From: a virus
Taxonomy: Duplodnaviria > Caudoviricetes
Strand: one strand, 5' to 3'
Length of the DNA: 28,670 nucleotides
IMG/VR virus record: IMGVR_UViG_3300006802_000396
Span: 1 to 28,670 of that record
The notes beneath the pieces are model-generated. The model was not told the DNA's origin. It did not search any database and worked only from the letters and a program-made list of their open reading frames with translations. Position numbers and translations under genes: made by a program. Shown here in pieces: positions 1 through 27,942 of the stretch (position 1 is the first letter of the stretch; each line of letters begins with the position of its first letter).

Positions 1-207
1 CGCAATCAGCAGCTCCTGCTCCGTCTCCGCAGCTCGGGCCGCCATCTGCAGCTCCTGCAAAGCCTTCTCCTGGGCGAATTGCAGCTCCATGGTCTTGCGC
101 TTCTGCTCCTCGGCGAGCCACGCAGCGCCGACCTTGAGGACGGAACCAAAGAAACCCAGAACGCCACCAGTGGCTACGTTGAGCAGGCCGTCGAGTACCG
201 TTTCCAT
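1..207 (-). CDS. Putative holin/membrane lysis protein (partial, runs off window start)
   Basis: Not in the ORF track. Read manually: ATG at 207 overlaps the endolysin stop (TGATG), with GGAGG 8 nt upstream. Translation METVLDGLLNVATGGVLGFFGSVLKVGAAWLAEEQKRK... gives an N-terminal hydrophobic helix plus a coiled segment. It directly follows the endolysin. Confidence 0.55.
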   Translation of the reverse strand, partial: METVLDGLLNVATGGVLGFFGSVLKVGAAWLAEEQKRKTMELQFAQEKALQELQMAARAAETEQELLIA

Positions 208-596
208 CACCATGACCTCCATGATCTGTTCCCGCCCATATCGACGTGCAGGAACGTGTTGTAATAGCCGAACCCCTGGAAGCCGACCTGCCGCGCCAGC
301 TCCTCGAGCCTCCACTTGTCGAGCCCCAGGATAGAGATGTCGTAGGCGTCTCCCACCTTATGCCGGGAAAGGGGCGCACCGCCCACCTTGGCGTTGTAGA
401 TCGGGTCGCGGTAGGCGCTGTTGATCGTCAGCGGGCGGGCCATCAGGGTGCGCAGCTCCTGTAGCCGGTCGAGAGCCTCGGTCATCACAACCAGAGATCC
501 GTCACCGTTCGATGCCAGCTCGGCCGGAGAGAAGTTGGGCCAGCGCCAGGTTGCAAGGTCGACCTCGCCGATGTTGTTCCACGCCAGGCGTGTCAT
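207..596 (-). CDS. Endolysin, peptidase M15A-type (Zn) cell-wall peptidase
   Basis: Motifs SAYR...N..VGGA..S.H..G.A.DI and FLHVD are typical of M15 peptidases; located in the lysis cassette. Confidence 0.9.
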   Translation of the reverse strand: MTRLAWNNIGEVDLATWRWPNFSPAELASNGDGSLVVMTEALDRLQELRTLMARPLTINSAYRDPIYNAKVGGAPLSRHKVGDAYDISILGLDKWRLEELARQVGFQGFGYYNTFLHVDMGGNRSWRSW

Positions 597-1042
597 GGCA
601 GCTCCTCCACGATCTCGAACAGCACCGTCGGCGTCTGCACGACGTGGATCCTGCCAAGGCCGCAGTCATAGGTGACCCGCTCGTAGAACTTGGCAGGGCC
701 AAGGGCGGCCTTCTCGGGAACCTGGACCGTGTACGCCAGGTGGAAGCTATCCTCGACCGGCGCAAATCCATCGATGCCATCAAAGTTCCAGACATTGCGC
801 TCCCCATCGACGATGGTGAACTCGCTTCGCGCATCACAGTCGCGGGTCTTGGTGCTGACGAACTCGACGCGCAGGGGGCCGCCTGGCACCGCATAGGGAT
901 AAGGTGCCTCGATCCACGACACGGTCAGCGGGGGCGGCTGCAGCTCGTACCAGTAGAGGGCAAGGCCAGCGCAGGTCCAGATGCCGACCATCGACACCAG
1001 GAGCGAGAGCTTTGACAGCGCAATCGAAACGGGGGCGCCCAT
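593..1042 (-). CDS. Hypothetical protein with N-terminal membrane anchor (lysis region)
   Basis: 149-aa ORF with a hydrophobic segment at about residues 12-32, followed by a beta-rich domain; ATGA overlap with the endolysin. Confidence 0.65.
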   Translation of the reverse strand: MGAPVSIALSKLSLLVSMVGIWTCAGLALYWYELQPPPLTVSWIEAPYPYAVPGGPLRVEFVSTKTRDCDARSEFTIVDGERNVWNFDGIDGFAPVEDSFHLAYTVQVPEKAALGPAKFYERVTYDCGLGRIHVVQTPTVLFEIVEELP

Positions 1043-1045
1043 GGC

Positions 1046-1303
1046 TCAACCCTTATGGATAATGGCGACAACGCCCTGCCAGATGGCAAAGGCAACAGCC
1101 GAGATGAACACGCCGACTGCACCGCGCTTCACCCAGCCCTGAAATTGCTCTGCACCCAGGCGCTGCTTGCGCAGGTAGAGGCTGTCAGCATAGATCTCGC
1201 GAGCTTCGGATGCGTCAAAACCCATCTCGCGCAGAACCTCTTTGGCGGTTTCTTTGGCTATCCTCTGAACGTCGGCCTTGGACATCTGATAAGTCTCACT
1301 CAT
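1046..1303 (-). CDS. Small membrane protein, possible holin/lysis accessory
   Basis: 85 aa with a single C-terminal TM helix (GAVGVFISAVAFAIWQGVVAII); AGGGGG RBS; first gene of the lysis cassette. Confidence 0.65.
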   Translation of the reverse strand: MSETYQMSKADVQRIAKETAKEVLREMGFDASEAREIYADSLYLRKQRLGAEQFQGWVKRGAVGVFISAVAFAIWQGVVAIIHKG

Positions 1304-1366
1304 ACGCGCCCCCTATCGTGACACGCACCTGCCGGCGTGACTGTTTCAAAACGAAACTTGGTCGGT

Positions 1367-1489
1367 TTATCCAACACCTGCGACAACAAACGCCGGGGGC
1401 GTCCCCTCCGGGATTGTCACGATGGTGATTGCGCCATACGTCATCGCGCTTCCATACGAAGCCTCGATACTAGTGAGAATTGTTTTCAT
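1367..1489 (-). CDS. Possible 40-aa ORF or frameshifted gene remnant
   Basis: ATG overlaps the stop of the upstream gene (ATGA); MKTILTSIEASYGSAMTYGAITIVTIPEGTPPAFVVAGVG*. See findings. Confidence 0.3.
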   Translation of the reverse strand: MKTILTSIEASYGSAMTYGAITIVTIPEGTPPAFVVAGVG

Positions 1490-14984: not shown

Positions 14985-15023
14985 AGAGAAAAGGGGCGAC
15001 CCGCCGTGAAACGAGCCGCCCCT
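14985..15023 (-). terminator. Rho-independent terminator after capsid/decoration genes
   Basis: Minus-strand RNA AGGGGCGGCUCGU-UUCACG-GCGGGUCGCCCCU-UUUCUCU: long GC stem with G-U pairs plus U-rich tail, in the T7 Tphi-equivalent position. Confidence 0.8.
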
Positions 15024-15044
15024 GTTCCGTTCAAGCGGTCAGCA

Positions 15045-15623
15045 TCAGGTGCGACGCATCAGCACCGTGATCTGAGCGACCGAGGCGGTGGAAGATCCAC
15101 CATCCGTCTCGATCTCGACCGTTGCACCAGCCGCCACCGCCGTGTTGGACGATGCCGCCAGGGTGTCAACGTCACCAGGGGCCGAGCCAGAGTAGGCAAC
15201 CGTGATGGTGCCGACCGTGCCTGCGGCCGTCTTCACGGTCAGCGTGGCATCCGCTGTCGTGATGGCGGTGTTGATCACACTCGAAACCGAGACCACCTCG
15301 GCCGCCACAGGCGACACGATGTAGACCTGACCGGCCGTCGAGATGTCGGTGATCTGCCCCGTCAGGATGAACGTGTCAGCCCCGATGGGTGCAGACGTCA
15401 CGACCCCTGCCGAGCTGGTCACTTCATACCAGGCCGAACCATCGGAGGCGTTGACGTAGATGACGTCGCCCGACGTGAGCATGTAGGCGATGTCGTTGAA
15501 ATAGCCCGACGCCGCGATTGTGGCGAGGGCATCCGCCGTGGAGGCATAGGTCCAGAGGACCGGGCTGTCTCCACGACCACCCGGCGAACCACCGGGATTG
15601 AGCTTGGTTTTATCGAGAGCCAT
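15045..15623 (-). CDS. Capsid decoration/cement-like virion protein
   Basis: Directly after the major capsid gene, strong AGGAGG RBS, Thr/Ala/Val/Ser-rich beta protein with 'DALATIAASGYFN...GDVIYV'. Confidence 0.65.
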   Translation of the reverse strand: MALDKTKLNPGGSPGGRGDSPVLWTYASTADALATIAASGYFNDIAYMLTSGDVIYVNASDGSAWYEVTSSAGVVTSAPIGADTFILTGQITDISTAGQVYIVSPVAAEVVSVSSVINTAITTADATLTVKTAAGTVGTITVAYSGSAPGDVDTLAASSNTAVAAGATVEIETDGGSSTASVAQITVLMRRT

Positions 15624-15635
15624 GAGCGTGTCCTC

Positions 15636-16484
15636 CTATGCTTCGTAGGTGGAAACGTCAACGATGCCGCCTGCGTCGATGTCAATCGCGCCTGCAGAAA
15701 AGATGCCGTTTGCCAGCCACGAGGTTTTCTCGGGGATCCAGTCCACGCTGGTGCTGAACTCGATACCGACCGCGAGGCCGATTGCACCCATGGCACCGCC
15801 GTGGAAGGCGAAGTTGGTACGCGTGTTCGTGGACAGGGTGAGGCCGCCCTCGTCACGATCTTCAACGAAGTAGAACGTGAAGCCGAGGAACGTGTTGATC
15901 TCGCCCGACGTGAGAGCGCGGACCGAATTGTAGTCCGCACTGGTGACCTCGGTCTCGCCGAGGAGCTGCTCATTGCCAATGGTATGAGCCACCATGGCGC
16001 GATCCTTCGCAGGGACGCCGTTCGTGTCGAGGAGCTGCTTGGCGCGGCGGAGCTTCGCCACGTTCAAGCCGGTGTTGGAACCGCCGACGGACGTTGCAAC
16101 GGTCAGGCTCGTCGAGGCCGCATCAAGGGCATCGATGATGAGCTGATCGCAGCGACGGCCAATCGCACCAGCGATCACCATGGCGAGCTGCTGGCGCTCG
16201 CTGTAGTTGACCTTCTGCTGGTCGAAGATGTCGGTGTACTCGGGGGCGTTCCAGTCCTCGAGGGTGGCCGTGCGGTTCGTGTGGGCAATGTTCATCGGGA
16301 CGACGTCCGTCTGAGGGACGCGGGGCGTTGCCATACCCTTCCCCATTTTGGGGAAACGGTGCGTCGAGCCGACAACACCCGTGCGAACGCGAGCCGTGGG
16401 GCGGAGCATCTCCATACCCTGGTACTCGTGTTTCACTTCGGTGTCGAACTGGGCGACCGCTGCGTCGGTGAGTTGCTTTGACAT
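15636..16484 (-). CDS. Major capsid protein
   Basis: QF..EVK..YQG...LR...R.R..V.GS...FP..G pattern and AIGRR.DQLIIDAL resemble BPP-1/HTVC010P-type capsids; follows the scaffold; biased codon usage. Confidence 0.92.
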   Translation of the reverse strand: MSKQLTDAAVAQFDTEVKHEYQGMEMLRPTARVRTGVVGSTHRFPKMGKGMATPRVPQTDVVPMNIAHTNRTATLEDWNAPEYTDIFDQQKVNYSERQQLAMVIAGAIGRRCDQLIIDALDAASTSLTVATSVGGSNTGLNVAKLRRAKQLLDTNGVPAKDRAMVAHTIGNEQLLGETEVTSADYNSVRALTSGEINTFLGFTFYFVEDRDEGGLTLSTNTRTNFAFHGGAMGAIGLAVGIEFSTSVDWIPEKTSWLANGIFSAGAIDIDAGGIVDVSTYEA

Positions 16485-16489
16485 GGGTC

Positions 16490-16724
16490 AATCTCTCCGG
16501 TTGATGATGGGTTCATCGCCGAACGATTGCCGTTGCCTATGTCTGGGTCAGGACGTCGCCCTGATTGCCGAGGCGGATGGGTCGTCTGCTCCAGATTAGA
16601 GGCTCTGGTGGGCCTTCTGGTGGTTGCCGCGCAAGGGCGAGCCGCAGTGGGCGGGGGCGAGGCACAGGAGGGAACCCAAACCCCGCCCCCTGGGTGCTAA
16701 AGCCTTTGGGGGGCCACCAGCACC
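16490..16724 (-). ncRNA. Candidate structured RNA / capsid leader with anti-RBS loop
   Basis: Hairpin 1 (16693-16724) and hairpin 2 (16653-16690, 10-bp stem, 18-nt loop UUUGGGUUCCCUCCUGUG). All non-Watson-Crick pairs are G-U only on the minus strand. Further small stems lie downstream. Confidence 0.55.
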
Positions 16725-16727
16725 TTG

Positions 16728-16756
16728 CTTATACGCCTGACGTGTGCCGGGCGCAA
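16728..16756 (-). promoter_or_regulatory. Putative sigma70-type late promoter
   Basis: TTGCGC-17 nt-TATAAG on the minus strand, immediately after the scaffold stop and upstream of the structured leader. Confidence 0.55.
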
Positions 16757-16761
16757 GATTG

Positions 16762-17595
16762 TCATTGACCTCCCGTGAGAGCCACGAAGCCGCGAGACAC
16801 CTCGTCGCGGTACTGCTCGCCGATGGGGCTGTCCTCGCTGTAGCGCGGATCCTTCATCATTTCCGCCAGCTCGGCCCTGGTTTTCATGCCGCCGTTCGAG
16901 CGCATGGTGTTGGTCGGGATCGGCTTCTCTCCGGCCTGCTCACGCAGGGCGTTGAGGGTTTGCAGGCCAAGCGCCGACATGCCCATCTGACGTGCGGCAA
17001 GATACTGGTCCTCGTTCAGGGTGCCGTCGGCATGCATGCGGTCGAGCCAGTTCTTGTTGGTCGCGATCAGGTTCTTGGCGTCGTCAATCGTCGGCATGCC
17101 CAGCGCCTCGATCTCCCGGTCGAGATCAAATGGCTCTGGCATGAGGCCGTCGAAGGCGAACATCGCATCGGAGACCAGGGACTTGAACTGCTTGTCGGTC
17201 AGGCCGTTCTTGTGGGCAACCTCGGCAAACGCCAGGAGTGCGGGGTCGTCGCCAGCCACCTCGCGGATCCGCTCGAGGGTCTTCTTGTCGTCACCCTCGC
17301 CGCGCTCCCGCTCGATCTTGAAGTCCTCGAGGTAGCCATCAGGGCTGTCGGGCGTCTTGCCCAAGCCCTTCCTGCCCTTGTTGAACTCAGCCCGCAGGTC
17401 GTTGTAGCTCTTCGCCAGCTTCTCGCCGTTCAGCTCGTTCTTCTCGGCGTTCCAGAATTGCTCGGGCGCCCAGTCGGGACGCGTCGGCTTGCCATCGTCT
17501 CTCGGCTCAGACGCGGCCTCCTGCTCGGTGTTCGTCGTCGTCTGCTGTTCGTCGCCAGCCACGCCCATGAGGCCGTCGTTGTTGTCGTCAGGCAT
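16762..17595 (-). CDS. Capsid scaffolding protein
   Basis: Acidic protein with RPDW.PE.FW...LAKSY..L and C-terminal EL..MM.DPRY motifs; between portal and capsid. Start set at ATG 17595 (GGAGGG RBS). Confidence 0.85.
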   Translation of the reverse strand: MPDDNNDGLMGVAGDEQQTTTNTEQEAASEPRDDGKPTRPDWAPEQFWNAEKNELNGEKLAKSYNDLRAEFNKGRKGLGKTPDSPDGYLEDFKIERERGEGDDKKTLERIREVAGDDPALLAFAEVAHKNGLTDKQFKSLVSDAMFAFDGLMPEPFDLDREIEALGMPTIDDAKNLIATNKNWLDRMHADGTLNEDQYLAARQMGMSALGLQTLNALREQAGEKPIPTNTMRSNGGMKTRAELAEMMKDPRYSEDSPIGEQYRDEVSRGFVALTGGQ

Positions 17596-17986
17596 GCTTT
17601 GCCCTCCAGAGCTTGAGGTATGAGGCGGCCTCGCGCAGCTCGACCTCGGATCCGGGGACGCCCGCAGCAATCACAATATCGACCGCGTCCTTGAGGGGTG
17701 TGCGCTCCAGGGGCTCGGGCTCGACCGGCCCAGGGGTCACCTCGTGCACCGGGCTCGAGATCTGGACGGTGGCCTCGGCCTCCTCCTTCGCCTTCCGCTT
17801 TGCGTCAGCGGCCTTGCCCTGCGTCCAGTCGGCCAGACCCTTGTCGTCGATGTCCTTTCGGCTCACCGCCCGGCCGAGGATCTCCTTGACCGCATTGAGG
17901 TTGGGTAGGCCGGTCTTGGTCCAGTGCGCCTCGACGTCTGGGTCCAGGCCCGCAACCACCTCTTCTAAAGTCAGGTCAGCACTCAT
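17588..17986 (-). CDS. Hypothetical head-module protein
   Basis: 132 aa with a small helical motif HWTKTGLP...V..ILGR.VSR.DI seen in phage head-region proteins; coupled at both ends. Confidence 0.7.
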   Translation of the reverse strand: MSADLTLEEVVAGLDPDVEAHWTKTGLPNLNAVKEILGRAVSRKDIDDKGLADWTQGKAADAKRKAKEEAEATVQISSPVHEVTPGPVEPEPLERTPLKDAVDIVIAAGVPGSEVELREAASYLKLWRAKHA

Positions 17987-18276
17987 CGTTCCTCCTTCGC
18001 GCGTTCCATGCGCTTCTCGATGTCCCGCACCAGATCCCGCTGACCTTCCCGGTAGACGAGCTGGTCACGAAACTCCAGCCCGATACCGGTCAGTGTGGGG
18101 TGCGGCCCCGATGCTTCGATGGTGACGTCGCGCAGCCACTGCAGGACGCGGCGACCTCGGGGCGTGGTGAAGGCTCCGAGGATGTCGCGGTCCAGGTCGC
18201 GGCGTTCATCAACGTCGGTTTTGTCCGGTCGGGCTGCCTCGAGCCCAGACCATCCGTTCTCACTGAAAACTGGCAT
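17983..18276 (-). CDS. Conserved post-portal protein (Bbp19-like)
   Basis: F.TP.G.RVL..L...EGQR.LV..I pattern; directly downstream of the portal; AACAGGAGGGAAC RBS. Confidence 0.75.
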   Translation of the reverse strand: MPVFSENGWSGLEAARPDKTDVDERRDLDRDILGAFTTPRGRRVLQWLRDVTIEASGPHPTLTGIGLEFRDQLVYREGQRDLVRDIEKRMERAKEER

Positions 18277-18287
18277 GTTCCCTCCTG

Positions 18288-19862
18288 TTACTGCCCCTGC
18301 TGCGGAGCCTGCTGGGCCATCTGCTGCTGGGCCATCATCTGGGCCATGGCCTTCTGCAGCTCGGCCCGTTCACTTTCGCTGCGAACGAGCTTGAGGTCAA
18401 TGCCCAGCTTGTCGGCAAACCACGGCGGGATGTCCTCGACCTTGACGGATCCCATCACCGCCTCCTGCCCGGCGAACGACGAGATCTGCAGCCAGTTGAC
18501 CACGCCGTCCACGTCGTTCATCTGCTGCACACGAGCGAGCGGCGACGTGATCTCGATGGCGACCGACAGGCCGTCGATCTTCAGCTCGGGCGTCGGGGCT
18601 GCGGGATCCGCGCCGGGGATCTGGATGATGCCCTTGCGCACCAGGATGTTGAGGCATCGCTGGAGCAGTGGGCGGATGAACTCATGCGAGATCCGACCGA
18701 ATGGTGCGCCGGTTTCCTCCTGCAGCTCCTTCACCCGCTCCATGATCTCGGTCGGCGAGCGCACCGGCCCTGCGTCGGGCGGGAGCTGGTTGTCGAAAAG
18801 GGCTCGTTTGATCGTCATCTGCAGGTCATCGATGATGAACTGCGAGACGTCGAAGCGGCCGCCGGTCTGGAGCGCCTGGAGGTTACCCTGCGCCCCGATC
18901 TCGACAACGGCACCGGGCGTGATCTGGATCGTGTCGGGGTTGATGACGCCATCGTCGACGGCGGTCCACACGCCTGCCACAGACAGCGACGCGTTCTTGA
19001 GAACCAGCTCCTTGACCTTGTTTAGCGTCTTGATGTCGGGCAGGACGTAGAGCGCCGGGCCTCGAGCCATCGCCTCGCCAGCCACCTTGGTCCAGCGGAA
19101 GAACACCCAGGGATGTTCGTTGTACCACCGCTCGACAATCTTGTGGGGCTCGGCCTTCGCGCCGCCCTTCCACCAGACGACGTAGGCGTACTTCTTCGCC
19201 CGGCTGTCGTAGAACGTCCCCTCCTCGAGCTTGACCTTCTGCTCGGGCGTGTCGCGTCCGATCCTCGCGAGATCCTCGGGCAGCTCGGCGTCTGTCCACG
19301 TCTCCTCGATCTCCCTGACCGGTGCCTCCCATCGCCGGAACGCACCATCGACGGAACCCATCGGGCCGTCGTCGGTCGCGAACTGGTAGTTGGGAACGGC
19401 CTGCATGAGGAGCGGCGAGCTGTCGTCGCCCTCGAGGATCAGCATGCCAGCCGTCGAGATTGCTCCCTCAAGATAGACCTCGCCGATCATGTGGTCGAAG
19501 TTGCTGGCGTGGATCGCAGCGAAGAGCTGCTTGTTGATGGTCTGGAGCTGGGTGCGAACCTGCTCCTTCTTTTCCTGGGGGACCAGAGGCCCATCGCTCA
19601 GAACCGCCCATGTCTGGAACGGTGGCGTGAGCTGTGACTGGAACCGCGACGCGAAACGCTGCACCGCCTCGATGGCCGTGCCGTCGAACACCCGGTCGAG
19701 CTTCTGGCTGCCCTCGGTCTTGTCGCTATAGCGGTTTCGCATGGGCAGGCAGAACTCATAGGCATCGTCGAGGATGCCCTGCCACTGCAGCTTGCGTTGC
19801 CAGGCCGCCTCGGCGCGGGCAATCAGTTTCTTGAGATCGACCGGAGCGTTCTTCTTTGCCAT
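18288..19862 (-). CDS. Portal protein (head-to-tail connector, T7 gp8-like)
   Basis: FD.TA..A...FAS.....LTPP...W, P....RW....GE...RGP....LPD.K.LN, R..TEI.ER..E motifs. Start set at ATG 19862. Confidence 0.95.
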   Translation of the reverse strand: MAKKNAPVDLKKLIARAEAAWQRKLQWQGILDDAYEFCLPMRNRYSDKTEGSQKLDRVFDGTAIEAVQRFASRFQSQLTPPFQTWAVLSDGPLVPQEKKEQVRTQLQTINKQLFAAIHASNFDHMIGEVYLEGAISTAGMLILEGDDSSPLLMQAVPNYQFATDDGPMGSVDGAFRRWEAPVREIEETWTDAELPEDLARIGRDTPEQKVKLEEGTFYDSRAKKYAYVVWWKGGAKAEPHKIVERWYNEHPWVFFRWTKVAGEAMARGPALYVLPDIKTLNKVKELVLKNASLSVAGVWTAVDDGVINPDTIQITPGAVVEIGAQGNLQALQTGGRFDVSQFIIDDLQMTIKRALFDNQLPPDAGPVRSPTEIMERVKELQEETGAPFGRISHEFIRPLLQRCLNILVRKGIIQIPGADPAAPTPELKIDGLSVAIEITSPLARVQQMNDVDGVVNWLQISSFAGQEAVMGSVKVEDIPPWFADKLGIDLKLVRSESERAELQKAMAQMMAQQQMAQQAPQQGQ

Positions 19863-20885: not shown

Positions 20886-21725
20886 TCAGAAAATCTTGAA
20901 GTCATGCTTGGCAACGCGGGCTCCCCCGCCCCTCGAGCGGTTGCGGTCCTGGCCCTTGTTCTCTCGATGCTCTCCCCCGCCCAGGAGCATGTAGCCACCG
21001 GCGTCAGGCTTGTGGCTATAGGCGTTCTTCTCCGGCTTGTCGGCATACCGCTCGGCCCCTGACACCTCGACGCGCCGGAAACGCCAGCGGCCTGACAGGG
21101 ATGCTCGCAGGCCAGAGCATCGCCGGTTAATCAGGAGGCCGGGCTGCCCATCGATCAGGCGCGACATCGGCGAGCGCCACGCCTGGATCCTGGCGGTGAT
21201 GTTGTTGGTCGGCGCGGCGAACGTCGGGATGCCGGTGCGCCTTCGCATGTGGTCGATGGCCGCGACCTCGAACACCTCGTCGCGGCCGTTGCCCGCAGGA
21301 TCCGCCCACGCCCTTTCGATGCTCCGGCCTGGGAACATCTGTGCCGCCTCCTGCTTGACCTGCGTGGCGAAACGCTCGAGCCCCATGTCCAGGCTCGCCA
21401 CCTCATGGTGGATCAGCCAGACGCCACGCTGGTGGAGCTGACCAAACACCGCAGCCGGTGCCAGTGTCCCTGCGCCGATGTCCAGGCCGAGCAGGAGCGG
21501 TCGATCCTCAAGGACGGGCAGGTCATCCCGCGCCATGAGGTCGTCGCGGTACTCGGGCGTCACCGGCTTGCCGTCTGACACGAAGCCGTAGCGGCCCTGG
21601 GCATAGACGCGGATCCAGTCACGGTCCTTGCCAGGCAGCATGCGAGAATAGTAGCGGTCGGGTAGGTTGCTCAGGTTCTCGGCGCCAGGGTTGACGACGA
21701 AGAATTCGTTGGACGCCTCGATCAC
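20886..21725 (-). CDS. terL: Terminase large subunit, C-terminal part (end of ATPase lid plus RNase H-like nuclease)
   Basis: NP.AENL.NLP..YY, LLLGLDIG, ADPAG, H..DA..Y motifs; same frame as the N-terminal part, separated by a TAA at 21750-21752. Confidence 0.85.
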   Translation of the reverse strand: MIEASNEFFVVNPGAENLSNLPDRYYSRMLPGKDRDWIRVYAQGRYGFVSDGKPVTPEYRDDLMARDDLPVLEDRPLLLGLDIGAGTLAPAAVFGQLHQRGVWLIHHEVASLDMGLERFATQVKQEAAQMFPGRSIERAWADPAGNGRDEVFEVAAIDHMRRRTGIPTFAAPTNNITARIQAWRSPMSRLIDGQPGLLINRRCSGLRASLSGRWRFRRVEVSGAERYADKPEKNAYSHKPDAGGYMLLGGGEHRENKGQDRNRSRGGGARVAKHDFKIF

Positions 21726-21749
21726 CTCGCGATCCTCGACGGCAACACC

Positions 21750-22436
21750 TTACGTCTGGGCCTCCTCGAGGGTCAGCACTGAGGGTGGCTGGGCGAAGAA
21801 CTCCCACTCATCGGGCCACTCCATCTCTAGATCGTGCAGCCAGTGATCCTCGTCAGGCGGGTTGGTGTCGCCGAGGATGGCGGCATAGCTGCACTCGACC
21901 CCTCGGCTTGCCTTCGATGGGTATCGACCGACGCGGGCGGTGGCGGCGTCGACGAGCTGCTTGGGCATCTCGCGCAGCTCGTTGAACCAGATGATGCTGC
22001 CCTCCCAGGAGAGGAGCTTCTTGATGTCCTTTGGCTTGTCGAGGGCGAGGAACTCTACCAGCAGGTCGATCTTGCCCTCCTCGTTGCGGATGTGATGCGT
22101 CATCGGTGCGCCCATCCTGATCGGCCCGAACACCTCCTCGTCGAAGATTGAGCGCCAGGTCGCCACGGTCGTGGTCGCCAGCTCGCCGTAGGTGTTGCGC
22201 ACGACGGCGGCCTTGGTGTAGCGCCAGCCGTCCGGGGCAGGCTCCTGCTCCATGGCGGCTTTCATAATCTTTGCGCAGCAGACGGTTGACTTTCCCGAGC
22301 CGACCGAGCCGCGCACGATAGACACGAAGGCCCGAGACTGCAGGAAGTCCCACAGCGTCGGGCTCGTCGAGAAGTCTAAGGTCTTGTGGTATCCGGTCAG
22401 CGGACGCCCCTCATTTGCTGCGTGATTTTGGGACAT
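21750..22436 (-). CDS. terL: Terminase large subunit, N-terminal ATPase part
   Basis: Walker A GSVGSGKS, VVRNTY.EL..TT, Walker B IIWFNE, coupling motif DTNP; ends at an in-frame TAA. Start codon uncertain. Confidence 0.88.
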   Translation of the reverse strand: MSQNHAANEGRPLTGYHKTLDFSTSPTLWDFLQSRAFVSIVRGSVGSGKSTVCCAKIMKAAMEQEPAPDGWRYTKAAVVRNTYGELATTTVATWRSIFDEEVFGPIRMGAPMTHHIRNEEGKIDLLVEFLALDKPKDIKKLLSWEGSIIWFNELREMPKQLVDAATARVGRYPSKASRGVECSYAAILGDTNPPDEDHWLHDLEMEWPDEWEFFAQPPSVLTLEEAQT

Positions 22437-24495: not shown

Positions 24496-25071
24496 TCAGG
24501 TTCCCTCCTGTTTGTGTGGTGATGCATTGTGGACCCACTGGCGCAGGACTGCAAGCCGCATCAGGTGGTCCTGATCGACGTACCATGTCCCCTGCATCAG
24601 CGCGTCAGCCGGTCCTGCCGTCTTTCGCATCTTGGTGAAGTCCTCGCGCAGCAGCCATCCTCGCAGCTCTGCCGATCGGAGATCGGGTGCGACCACGGCC
24701 AGGATCAGGATGTCTGCGCAGGCCTCCTCAAAGATCGCCCGCTTGTTCACCGGCCAGATCAATCGCCGGGCTCGGCTGTGGTTGGTTGCCTTGACATCGA
24801 CCGACCCGACGGGGAGGCTGAAGTCGGATCCCGCGTCGGTGGCGACGGATCCCCAGTCGAGATCGGCCCGAGGGTCGAGGCCGAGGTAGATGGCCGCAGC
24901 CACCTCCCCGACCCGACCGACGGCCTGCATCCTGGGATCCTTGTCGATGTCGTGCATCGCCATCCTCTTCGAGCGGGCCTTCGCGCCAGCCGCGTAGGAT
25001 GCCACGACAGCCCGGCCGAAGGCCTCGCTCTGGCGCAGCATCTCGTCGGAGATGTCGATGCGCGGCGTCAC
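24496..25071 (-). CDS. Hypothetical protein, PD-(D/E)XK nuclease-like
   Basis: G..GE.A....G ... D.G.DF ... VDVKAT motif order; GTGA coupling. Confidence 0.6.
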   Translation of the reverse strand: MTPRIDISDEMLRQSEAFGRAVVASYAAGAKARSKRMAMHDIDKDPRMQAVGRVGEVAAAIYLGLDPRADLDWGSVATDAGSDFSLPVGSVDVKATNHSRARRLIWPVNKRAIFEEACADILILAVVAPDLRSAELRGWLLREDFTKMRKTAGPADALMQGTWYVDQDHLMRLAVLRQWVHNASPHKQEGT

Positions 25072-25660: not shown

Positions 25661-26292
25661 GGCGCACCCCCCCATTGTAGCGCCATGGCATCGGATATGC
25701 CTGGATATGTGAGACCGCGCTCTCTTGCGCGTTTCGGAGATGGGCCGAGGCGGTTCTGACCGCTGTCGGTCTGGTTCGCCCACCGCTTTTTTCCGTTGAC
25801 GATGCGGGGGGGCACATACTCGGTCCCGGCCAGCTCGGGCAAACCCTTGAGCCACAGGCATGTAGCCTTGCTCGCATCCTCGCCAAAGTGATAGGGCTGA
25901 ATGATCTGGTCAGGCTTGCGGATGCGCGTCGAGAGGCAGCCTATCGGGTTTTCCACGGCCACCCGTGGGGCCGCAGGCGTGTCTATCAGCATGCGGGCGA
26001 AGGTCACGGCCATCTCCGTTTTTGCCGCACGGCCCGGTACGCGCCCGTTCCAGTGGAGCCCAGAGGATGACAGGTATGTGCAGTCGGGGAAGGCTAGGAT
26101 CATGTCCCAGCCGCCCCTGTCGATAACCTCAAACACATCCCCTTGGATATGCCGATCAGGAAACTGTTGCCGCTCAAACAGTTCCGGCTCCTGCGCCGGG
26201 CCGTCCAGATCTACGGACCATGCGTCATGGCCGAGCCTGCAGAGGGCATCGCGCACCCGGCCCGAGATCTCGCAGCCCACCAGTACGCGCAT
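25657..26292 (-). CDS. Phage DNA cytosine methyltransferase-like protein
   Basis: VLVGCE.SG.VR.A...GHDAWS.DL, FPDC (catalytic PC-like), VENP, QP..FG..K.TCLWL..LP, YPGI..AMA.QW. Confidence 0.75.
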   Translation of the reverse strand: MRVLVGCEISGRVRDALCRLGHDAWSVDLDGPAQEPELFERQQFPDRHIQGDVFEVIDRGGWDMILAFPDCTYLSSSGLHWNGRVPGRAAKTEMAVTFARMLIDTPAAPRVAVENPIGCLSTRIRKPDQIIQPYHFGEDASKATCLWLKGLPELAGTEYVPPRIVNGKKRWANQTDSGQNRLGPSPKRARERGLTYPGISDAMALQWGGAP

Positions 26293-26546
26293 CAGAAGAG
26301 GTCGAGCTGCGCTGCCACAGAGTAGCTCTCGAGCAGCGCGGCCTTCTCCTGCCGTGCATCACGCTCAATCGCCCGCAGCTTGATCAGCTCTCTGATGATG
26401 GATGGATCCAGGCCGACCGATTTGGCCTCGATGAACACCTCGCGGATGTCCTCGGTGATGTTCTTTCGCTCCTGCATCAGGTTCTCGACGCGATCGATCA
26501 CGCTCTTGATCTTGTCGCCTGCAATGGTGTTGCTTCCCTCGGTCAT
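26292..26546 (-). CDS. gapR: GapR/DUF2312 nucleoid-associated protein homologue
   Basis: IKS.I.RVE.L..E.K.I..DI.EVF.EAK..G.D...IR..IKLR......R.E..ALL..Y; start at ATG 26546 (ATGA overlap). Confidence 0.88.
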   Translation of the reverse strand: MTEGSNTIAGDKIKSVIDRVENLMQERKNITEDIREVFIEAKSVGLDPSIIRELIKLRAIERDARQEKAALLESYSVAAQLDLF

Positions 26547-26815: not shown

Positions 26816-26833
26816 CAACAGGAGGGAAACCAG

Positions 26834-27013
26834 ATGGGCGCTTACGACGACGCAACAGAGACAGAGAAGACCCTGCGCAAGCAGGTATTCAATGCAATGC
26901 GCGACAACGACAAGGCCGAGGTCAAGCGTCTGAGCGCGGAACTCCGCGCCATCTACCACGCCCGCTGCCCCGACGTTGCGGCCATGTGGCAGGAATGCCG
27001 CGACACACTTTGA
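26834..27013 (+). CDS. Small early hypothetical protein (59 aa)
   Basis: ATG 26834 with AACAGGAGGGAAACC RBS; first gene after the rightward promoter. Confidence 0.7.
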   Translation: MGAYDDATETEKTLRKQVFNAMRDNDKAEVKRLSAELRAIYHARCPDVAAMWQECRDTL

Positions 27014-27039
27014 TCACACAAACAGGAGGGAACCTGACA

Positions 27040-27426: not shown

Positions 27427-27710
27427 TGCGGCCCATCAACGTGACAACCACCTTTTCATACGATGACCTCGAGGGTGAGGTCGATGTCAGGGTGACATCC
27501 TTGGGCTGCCCTGCCTACATCAGCGGCCCGCCCGAGCATTGCTACCCGGCAGAGCCCCCTGAGTTTGAGATCGAGGGCATCAGGTTCGACTGCCTCGTGT
27601 GGGACCATAAGACATGGGACCAGGTCGTGCGCGATCGCCTCGAGACGGAGGACTGGTTCTACGAAGAGGTCATCCGCCTCGCACGGGAGGGCCTCGACGA
27701 TGCTGACTAA
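27426..27710 (+). CDS. Early hypothetical protein with GPPE.CYP.E motif
   Basis: TGATG-coupled start at 27426; 94-aa acidic protein; the motif is recurrent in small phage proteins. Confidence 0.7.
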   Translation: MRPINVTTTFSYDDLEGEVDVRVTSLGCPAYISGPPEHCYPAEPPEFEIEGIRFDCLVWDHKTWDQVVRDRLETEDWFYEEVIRLAREGLDDAD

Positions 27711-27942
27711 ACGCCAGGCCGAGTGCTTCTACCTCATCCGAGAGAGGATTGCCCATGATGGCTGCGCCCCATCCATTCGCGAGCTGTGCGAGCTGATGGG
27801 TACGAAGTCGAAGGATGGCGTCACAAATTTTCTCTGCGCTCTCGAGGAGCAGAAGTACATCCGGCGCCCGCCCGCTCGGCATCGTAACATCCAGATCATC
27901 GACCACCCAGAGAACCGGGTAGCAACCCCAGAGGGAACCTGA
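27700..27942 (+). CDS. LexA-like winged-HTH DNA-binding domain only (80 aa)
   Basis: MLT.RQ......I.E.....G..PS..EL...MG.KSK.GV......LEE..YIRR.P...R.I.I closely follows the alphaproteobacterial LexA N-domain; no peptidase domain. GGGAGG RBS. Confidence 0.8.
   Translation: MLTKRQAECFYLIRERIAHDGCAPSIRELCELMGTKSKDGVTNFLCALEEQKYIRRPPARHRNIQIIDHPENRVATPEGT

Follow-up and report, generated by a model that had tools for sequence, protein, structure and literature searches.

The switch from early to late gene expression in phages is usually credited to proteins. Among the regulatory RNAs closest to the locus described here, AbcR is a stand-alone small RNA with its own terminator. For AbcR, it was shown by mutagenesis that the M2 motif GUUCCC regulates mRNAs (PMC5461406, accessible part of the text). 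That the mRNA leader of a mobile element can be the source of a trans-acting RNA is known from the regulator derived from the 5'-UTR of IS200 tnpA (PMC5435999, accessible part). In Pseudomonas phages, the candidates for 5'-UTR noncoding RNAs include the leader of the YuA major head gene (PMC10914365), and for the late sRNAs of PAK_P3, tRNA T-loops and two coding regions were given as predicted targets (PMC4933390), as far as the accessible parts of both papers go. Here, a hairpin in the capsid leader of a phage is described, the loop of which is antisense to an RBS motif shared by several genes of the same phage.

The sequence studied, referred to as the window, is an entire virus record of 28,670 bases. 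The genes on its minus strand code for terminase, portal, a T7-type scaffold (PF05396), a PF19821 capsid protein, tail tubes and internal virion proteins, and further genes code for a DUF1376 initiator, a GapR-like DNA-binding protein (26292-26546), a LexA-like repressor (27700-27942) and YqaJ. By capsid, the closest named phages are SI2 (59%) and MEP301 (55%). The window derives from an uncultured podophage, probably with an alphaproteobacterial host, the host being suggested by GapR and by the MAG labels of some relatives. The large terminase subunit is present as two open reading frames (21750-22436 and 20886-21725; region 20886-22436), compared to one of 516 amino acids in the sequence G001. 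The part of G001 from 27543 to 42968 (L105) has no match to window 1-1449, a lower GC content and apparently its own replication genes.

The scaffold (capsid assembly) gene (16762..17595, minus strand; PF05396, E 1e-15) forms the upstream border of a 277-nt spacer, which extends from the scaffold stop codon to the ATG of the major capsid gene (15636..16484, minus strand; PF19821, E 2e-78; phrog_3437) and holds the hairpin of interest, hairpin 2, together with the rest of the capsid leader. The capsid gene is followed by a second gene of the presumed capsid transcript (15045..15623, minus strand) and then by a terminator-like hairpin at 15023-14992. In one relative, a tRNA gene was identified inside the scaffold-capsid spacer (L077:505-578).

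The minus strand carries a predicted -35 box TTGCGC (16751..16756) and a predicted -10 box TATAAG (16728..16733) of a capsid-operon promoter, separated by a 17-nt spacer, exactly as described in a first-pass annotation of the locus. In L068, a 3.8-kb metagenome contig without early genes, the capsid and scaffold proteins of which are 74% and 54% identical to those of the window, the -35 box is TTGCCT at the equal 17-nt spacing with a diverged spacer, and GCGTATAAG at the -10 box is identical. In a consensus promoter scan of the window, the TTGCGC box scored under the threshold. Judged from the spacing to the -10 box, transcription would start near 16721-16723. Frequently, the predicted capsid promoter coincides in part with an inverted repeat or a terminator hairpin, mainly at its -35 box (L068:1760-1805, L146, L153, L036, L155 and window 16756-16727).

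Two tandem hairpins had been proposed downstream of these boxes. Both are present; however, hairpin 1 (16693..16724, minus strand) is weak (z -1.27) and has no matching stem in L068, so that only the second is conserved. Hairpin 2 (16653..16690, minus strand; z -2.91) consists of an 11-bp stem, a weak upper stem and a UUCCCU apex. Its arms, 16690-16680 and 16663-16653 on the minus strand, and the 18 nt between them (16680-16663) were found where they had been placed, but the description of these 18 nt as an open loop did not hold, since both the minimum free energy and the centroid structure pair UGGG with CCUG, leaving half of the stretch paired and a UUCCCU hexaloop exposed. The assignment to a minus-strand RNA agrees with the folding energies, the two-hairpin fold reaching -45.6 kcal/mol (z -2.32; 4/200 shuffles) on this strand compared to -38.1 (z 0.17) on the plus strand. 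The invariant 12-nt core of hairpin 2, GGUUCCCUCCUG, includes GUUCCC and runs antisense to the RBS motif of the phage. An Rfam search with the element gave solely sub-threshold matches to unrelated families, and none to the AbcR, cuckoo or c4 models. Further downstream, a conserved middle block (16589..16620, minus strand) with a small CCAGA/UCUGG hairpin shares with L068 two runs, of 18 and 11 nt, on either side of a short gap.

L068 retains the TTGC box 17 nt from TATAAG, the stem of hairpin 2 and the unchanged 12-nt core. In the stem, 5 of 10 counted pairs are changed on both sides and none is broken; in this two-sequence comparison of window and L068, equal stem pairing is reached by 21/500 shuffles. 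Selection on the loop sequence, as had been proposed, is supported by the identity of the core in L068 while half of the counted stem pairs turned over. Other blocks of the leader are conserved in L068 as strongly as the loop. When the L068 loop was compared with the six start sites of that contig (p 0.013), the best match was to the Bbp19-like gene (9 nt) and then to the next gene (8 nt); the capsid RBS of L068 matches the L068 loop over 6 nt. Directly 3' of the gene that follows the capsid gene, L068 contains a second anti-SD stretch, GGTTCCTCCTGG (L068:3490-3505), which is predicted to be paired and has no counterpart at the matching place in the window.

The search for relatives covered DNA patterns in viral contigs, scans with the scaffold, the capsid, gene 27040 and the initiator, and blastn of the leader against phages; the matches listed were copies of the phage, L068, distant relatives or chance matches, with no further close relative among them. 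In four distant phages that have CU-rich hairpins in the spacer (L099, L101, L163 and L193), the loops show no significant flank match to the RBSs of the same phage (p 0.26-1.0), and therefore the specific antisense relation is shown only for the small clade of the window and L068. In L163 and L101, these are terminator hairpins with anti-SD loops located about 185 nt before the capsid ATG, and in L099 the hairpin lies about 150 nt before it. Loosely defined anti-SD spacer hairpins were not enriched family-wide (11/83 spacers, compared to 4-13 in 40 shuffles), and CCTCC anywhere in the spacers was marginal (26/83 compared to 20.1; 12/200 shuffles).

The RBS motif to which the loop is complementary was identified in the window as exact 13-mers at 16664 (plus strand), 24499 (minus strand) and 27022 (plus strand) and with one mismatch at 18276 (minus strand) and 26818 (plus strand), in line with the first-pass annotation. 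For ACAGGAGGGAA, five copies were counted in the window, the hairpin copy included, compared to none in 1,087,984 bases of 81 non-redundant relatives. An extra 11-nt copy of the motif at G001 41399-41408, left out of the counts, sits in a part of lower GC content (0.49-0.57 compared to 0.63), which is unlike the window and possibly chimeric. Matches to the loop of at least 11 nt were found at 4/61 GGAG start sites of the window and at 0/1005 in the 81 relatives. With the GGAGG core held fixed, the real loop flanks beat 5000 random flanks on the GGAG start sites of the window (p 0.0002), in a test the filter of which removed two true targets; on the start sites of four other phages, the same flanks gave no significant match (p 0.17-0.70). 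The match to a phage-specific RBS family thus exceeds chance, as had been claimed, and the complementarity to the target RBSs extends beyond the generic anti-SD core. A part of the motif copies, GGGAACCTG, resembles the helix-45 loop region of 16S rRNA, which we take to be probably a coincidence.

In a duplex scan of both strands of the window, the best four non-self sites of the loop were the start regions of 24494, 27040, 26834 and 18276. The best of these predicted targets is the RBS of the replication initiator (24499..24511, minus strand; ATG 24494; phrog_9327/270), with a 13-nt match, a duplex of -29.5 and a net value of -17.8 after opening costs. It is followed by the RBS of a gene for a 128-aa protein (27022..27034, plus strand; ATG 27040; 13-nt match; -29.4, net -17.8), the RBS of the first gene in the plus-strand operon, coding for 59 aa (26818..26830, plus strand; ATG 26834; 11-nt match; -27.1, net -15.4) and the RBS of a Bbp19-like gene after portal (18277..18288, minus strand; ATG 18276; 12-nt match; -25.7, net -16.9). 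The Bbp19-like gene, the PF25181 score of which is below the family cutoff, belongs to the structural module and is not an early gene. The 16-pair duplex of the loop with the start regions of 24494 and 27040, noted earlier, was reproduced, in one of two analyses with automatic gene calls that were noisy and missed gene 26834. The RBS of the YqaJ/RecE-like nuclease (27927..27939, plus strand; ATG 27944) is a weak predicted target, being fifth of 18 start regions with a net value of -9.6. The proposed set of five target genes therefore stands for the four strong start regions that top the window scan, but not for YqaJ, which falls outside the top 14. When opening costs are included, the five named sites rank 1-5 among the 18 hand-picked start regions (-17.8 to -9.6; next -8.7). 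All these figures, including the motif counts and p values above, are partly post hoc, the hairpin having been picked for its RBS match. The start region of the capsid gene itself has a net value of -0.2 kcal/mol with the loop, and the RBS of the LexA-like repressor pairs weakly (net -5.3).

Several other origins of the motif copies were considered. On the plus strand, the copy in the hairpin has no start codon behind it, as stated before, the nearest GTG being 22 nt past GGAGG and a CTG 18 nt; an open reading frame using the site as its RBS was rejected, with spacings of 18-34 nt and a reading not common to L068. A generic alphaproteobacterial RBS was likewise rejected, the 11-mer CAGGAGGGAAC having 54 matches in 81 alphaproteobacterial genomes, two of them from the unpublished G044, compared to 69 control matches; by the same counts, host targets with long matches would be rare. 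A DNA operator is unlikely, five of the six copies lying at RBS spacing and the sixth inside a stem with strand-specific wobbles. Ahead of two unrelated genes, 24499-24525 (minus strand) and 27008-27034 (plus strand) are near-identical over about 26 nt, which has the appearance of a duplicated RBS cassette. The likeness of the 24499 and 27022 copies reaches upstream of the part that can pair with the loop, so that duplication may have contributed to the RBS family.

As to the transcript, six RNA-library runs were compared with the window as assembled contigs, from which neither strand nor level nor a single molecule can be read and in which DNA may be included. Among the contigs listed, those from four studies lie over hairpin 2, namely X15 (16457-16708), X16 (16430-16708), X19 (16223-16739) and X17 (16436-16675), the last covering half of it. 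The contigs X16 and X19 bridge hairpin 2 into the capsid gene, with more than 31 letters both before and after the start. In two studies the contigs end at 16708, in the loop of hairpin 1, which hints weakly at a 5' end close by; one contig reaches 16739, beyond the predicted transcription start. At the other side, contigs end next to the terminator-like hairpin that follows the second gene, at 15032 and 15037. Outside 15032-16739 the RNA cover is sparse; the runs had been picked with 15000-19000, and the depth of contigs cannot rank parts of the window. No terminator-like site was found 3' of hairpin 2 on the minus strand, so that a free small RNA would lack a boundary at its 3' end. The stand-alone riboregulator of two hairpins proposed in the first-pass annotation is not supported in that form, since the contigs continue into the capsid gene and only hairpin 2 is conserved. 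Because the RNA contigs run into the capsid gene, hairpin 2 looks like part of an mRNA leader and not like a free sRNA, and the simplest reading is a capsid mRNA, which we infer to be a minus-strand transcript, with a leader of about 237 nt instead of a free RNA of 70 nt. A fragment may be released from this leader. Hairpin 2 is a real, selected and conserved RNA element, and its position in the capsid mRNA is likely to be close to the 5' end.

The same leader contains a pseudo-symmetric four-way-junction RNA (16518..16590, minus strand), in which GA-C-CC..GG-CAA-UC occurs twice and which ends 39 nt before the capsid ATG. The strict pattern of the junction, which itself demanded some of the pairs, was found in 21/83 leaders at 36-54 nt before the ATG and was absent from the reverse-strand, coding and 30 shuffled controls. 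A covariance model built from 8 seeds identified 18/83 sources at E<0.005, all of them capsid leaders and 10 of them non-seeds. Among 24 matches fitted to the model, 6 of them weak and off-target, double changes were seen in 8/11 pairs, in an alignment that leans towards the model; in the 8 seeds alone, they were seen in 2/11. Other examples are L012:7041-7113 and L143:9887-9959. An Rfam search of fifteen small relative loci gave no match for the junction, which may be among the 10,006 candidates of PMC10690425. Loop-loop kissing within the junction was better than with swapped partners (3/5000), but not better than with shuffled loops (256/2000). Among copies of the phage, the leader is polymorphic at 16575, in a junction loop (C/T), and at 16499, just 5' of the capsid SD (1-nt deletion), and both polymorphisms are present in the RNA contigs, too. 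The junction is a separate, older element that would likely act in cis on capsid translation, and it is a candidate for a protein-binding translational operator. It represents a covarying RNA before the capsid genes of a widespread group of aquatic podophages, including relatives of MEP301 and SI2.

The best explanation, which we regard as having an even chance of being correct, is that hairpin 2 would serve as an antisense domain, either as part of the capsid mRNA or after being cut from it. The dependence on a single informative relative, L068, and the predicted pairing of half of the loop speak against the antisense reading. Instead, the hairpin might be a general CU-rich module in the manner of AbcR or cuckoo, which binds a host RNA-binding protein or, briefly, many SD sites of host and phage, the match to its own RBSs being secondary. 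Such a module would explain the AbcR M2 motif GUUCCC in the loop, the exact cuckoo motif CCUCCUCCC that occurs only in the L163 loop, and the presence of CCTCC in 3/42 strong spacer-hairpin loops of other relatives compared to 0.38 expected (95/20000 shuffles) and to 3/475 strong hairpin loops elsewhere in their loci. However, two of the three CCTCC loops (L101 and L163) are those of terminator hairpins upstream of the promoter and, given the similar leaders of these phages, are not independent; in addition, the flank match to the rare RBS family of the phage is left unexplained and the 11-mer is not enriched in the 81 alphaproteobacterial genomes. We consider such a general module rather unlikely. 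It is quite improbable that the hairpin acts in cis within a long late transcript, folding back on the Bbp19-like RBS 1.6 kb upstream and tuning the ratios of assembly proteins, with the other motif copies as duplicated RBS cassettes. The Bbp19-like site matches well in the window (12 nt) as well as in L068 (9 nt), which, like the additional upstream likeness of the 24499 and 27022 copies and the RNA contig that reaches 16739, would fit folding of this kind, but other genes have the two longest matches, and three of the sites lie on the opposite strand. Moreover, the conserved promoter directly upstream of the hairpin suggests that most copies of the hairpin would be made without the 18276 site.

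A switch within the leader, in which the loop pairs with the capsid SD or with the GGAG at 16597-16594 beside the junction and forms one arm of a translational switch, is given a small chance. The leader around the loop is highly structured, conservation in L068 extends to the neighbouring GGAG block, and the L068 loop matches the capsid RBS of that contig (6 nt); in the window, however, the net value with the capsid start region is close to zero (-0.2 kcal/mol), the internal match comprises only 4-5 pairs, and the matches of 11-13 nt would be left unexplained. Least probable is a neutral 5' stabilising stem, the loop of which arose from an inverted copy of the phage RBS cassette and is not involved in regulatory pairing. 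The phage does duplicate this cassette, and the conservation was seen in one relative, L068, but a loop under no constraint would not be expected to keep all 12 nt when half of the stem pairs have been exchanged.

For the antisense domain, the following mechanism is proposed. The promoter at 16756-16728 would produce the capsid leader of about 237 nt, in which the exposed UUCCCU would nucleate on AGGGAA. The weak upper stem would then melt, and 11-16 pairs would cover the Shine-Dalgarno sites of the replication initiator, of genes 26834 and 27040, with which the plus-strand operon opens, and of the Bbp19-like gene, the capsid site itself being spared. Since three of the predicted targets are on the opposite strand, they would be reached only by pairing in trans, and the acting molecule could be either the full mRNA or a piece cleaved from its leader. 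Translation of the targets would drop once capsid transcription is strong, a timing that we infer as well. One strong target, the Bbp19-like gene, is located in the structural module, so that a clean early-to-late switch fits poorly. In a wider and tentative form, which we hold to be possible but somewhat unlikely, the capsid mRNA itself would be the regulator: a private RBS address, ACAGGAGGGAAC, placed on chosen genes would be read by the leader, so that initiation of replication and the beginning of the early operon on the opposite strand would be shut down to a degree proportional to capsid transcription, and the junction would set capsid translation.

By title or abstract start, no paper on the capsid-leader and RBS arrangement or on the junction was found in a literature search covering few subscription papers. 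The leader-derived and late phage RNAs introduced above are similar in that a leader gives rise to a trans-acting RNA (PMC5435999) or in that late phage RNAs are abundant or conserved (PMC10914365, PMC4933390); however, in the accessible parts of these papers, none is described as targeting a family of RBSs of the phage itself. As in AbcR1 and AbcR2 of the Rhizobiales, GUUCCC is present and predicted to be mostly unpaired, and the predicted pairing is at ribosome-binding regions (PMC5461406, accessible part); it occurs in the window and in L068, with five of its six bases in the predicted hexaloop. In contrast to AbcR, in which, according to the same part of the text, the M1 motif CUCCCA sits within the first hairpin and M2 between the hairpins, M1 is absent here from hairpins 1 and 2 and M2 is located at a hairpin apex. 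AbcR is also a separate sRNA gene with its own 3' end, whereas here the apparent leader of a phage mRNA would pair over 11-16 positions with predicted targets among its own genes, no terminator-like site was identified, and the contigs continue into the capsid gene. In the cuckoo/CcsR RNAs (RSs0680, RF02344), too, a CU-rich anti-SD loop stays invariant while its stem undergoes compensatory changes (PMC4615179, accessible part), but there 2-4 adjacent anti-SD hairpins with CCUCCUCCC loops are present, compared to one loop with the core GGUUCCCUCCUG and no Rfam match in this leader. The c4 antisense RNA of P1 and P7 is likewise a phage RNA, the loops of which block translation of phage mRNA around the ribosome-binding site (PMC12197685, accessible part). 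However, c4 controls the ant mRNA for immunity, whereas the element described here is linked to the capsid gene and would address several unlinked genes by a common RBS motif; the c4 Rfam model gave no match in the hairpin 2 element. Thus, the element would work like AbcR, cuckoo and P1 c4 and yet lacks their defining features, so that it would be a member of none of these families. If the proposed mechanism is correct, replication genes would receive feedback from a structural mRNA through RNA pairing alone, which would combine an AbcR-like seed with a common RBS code.
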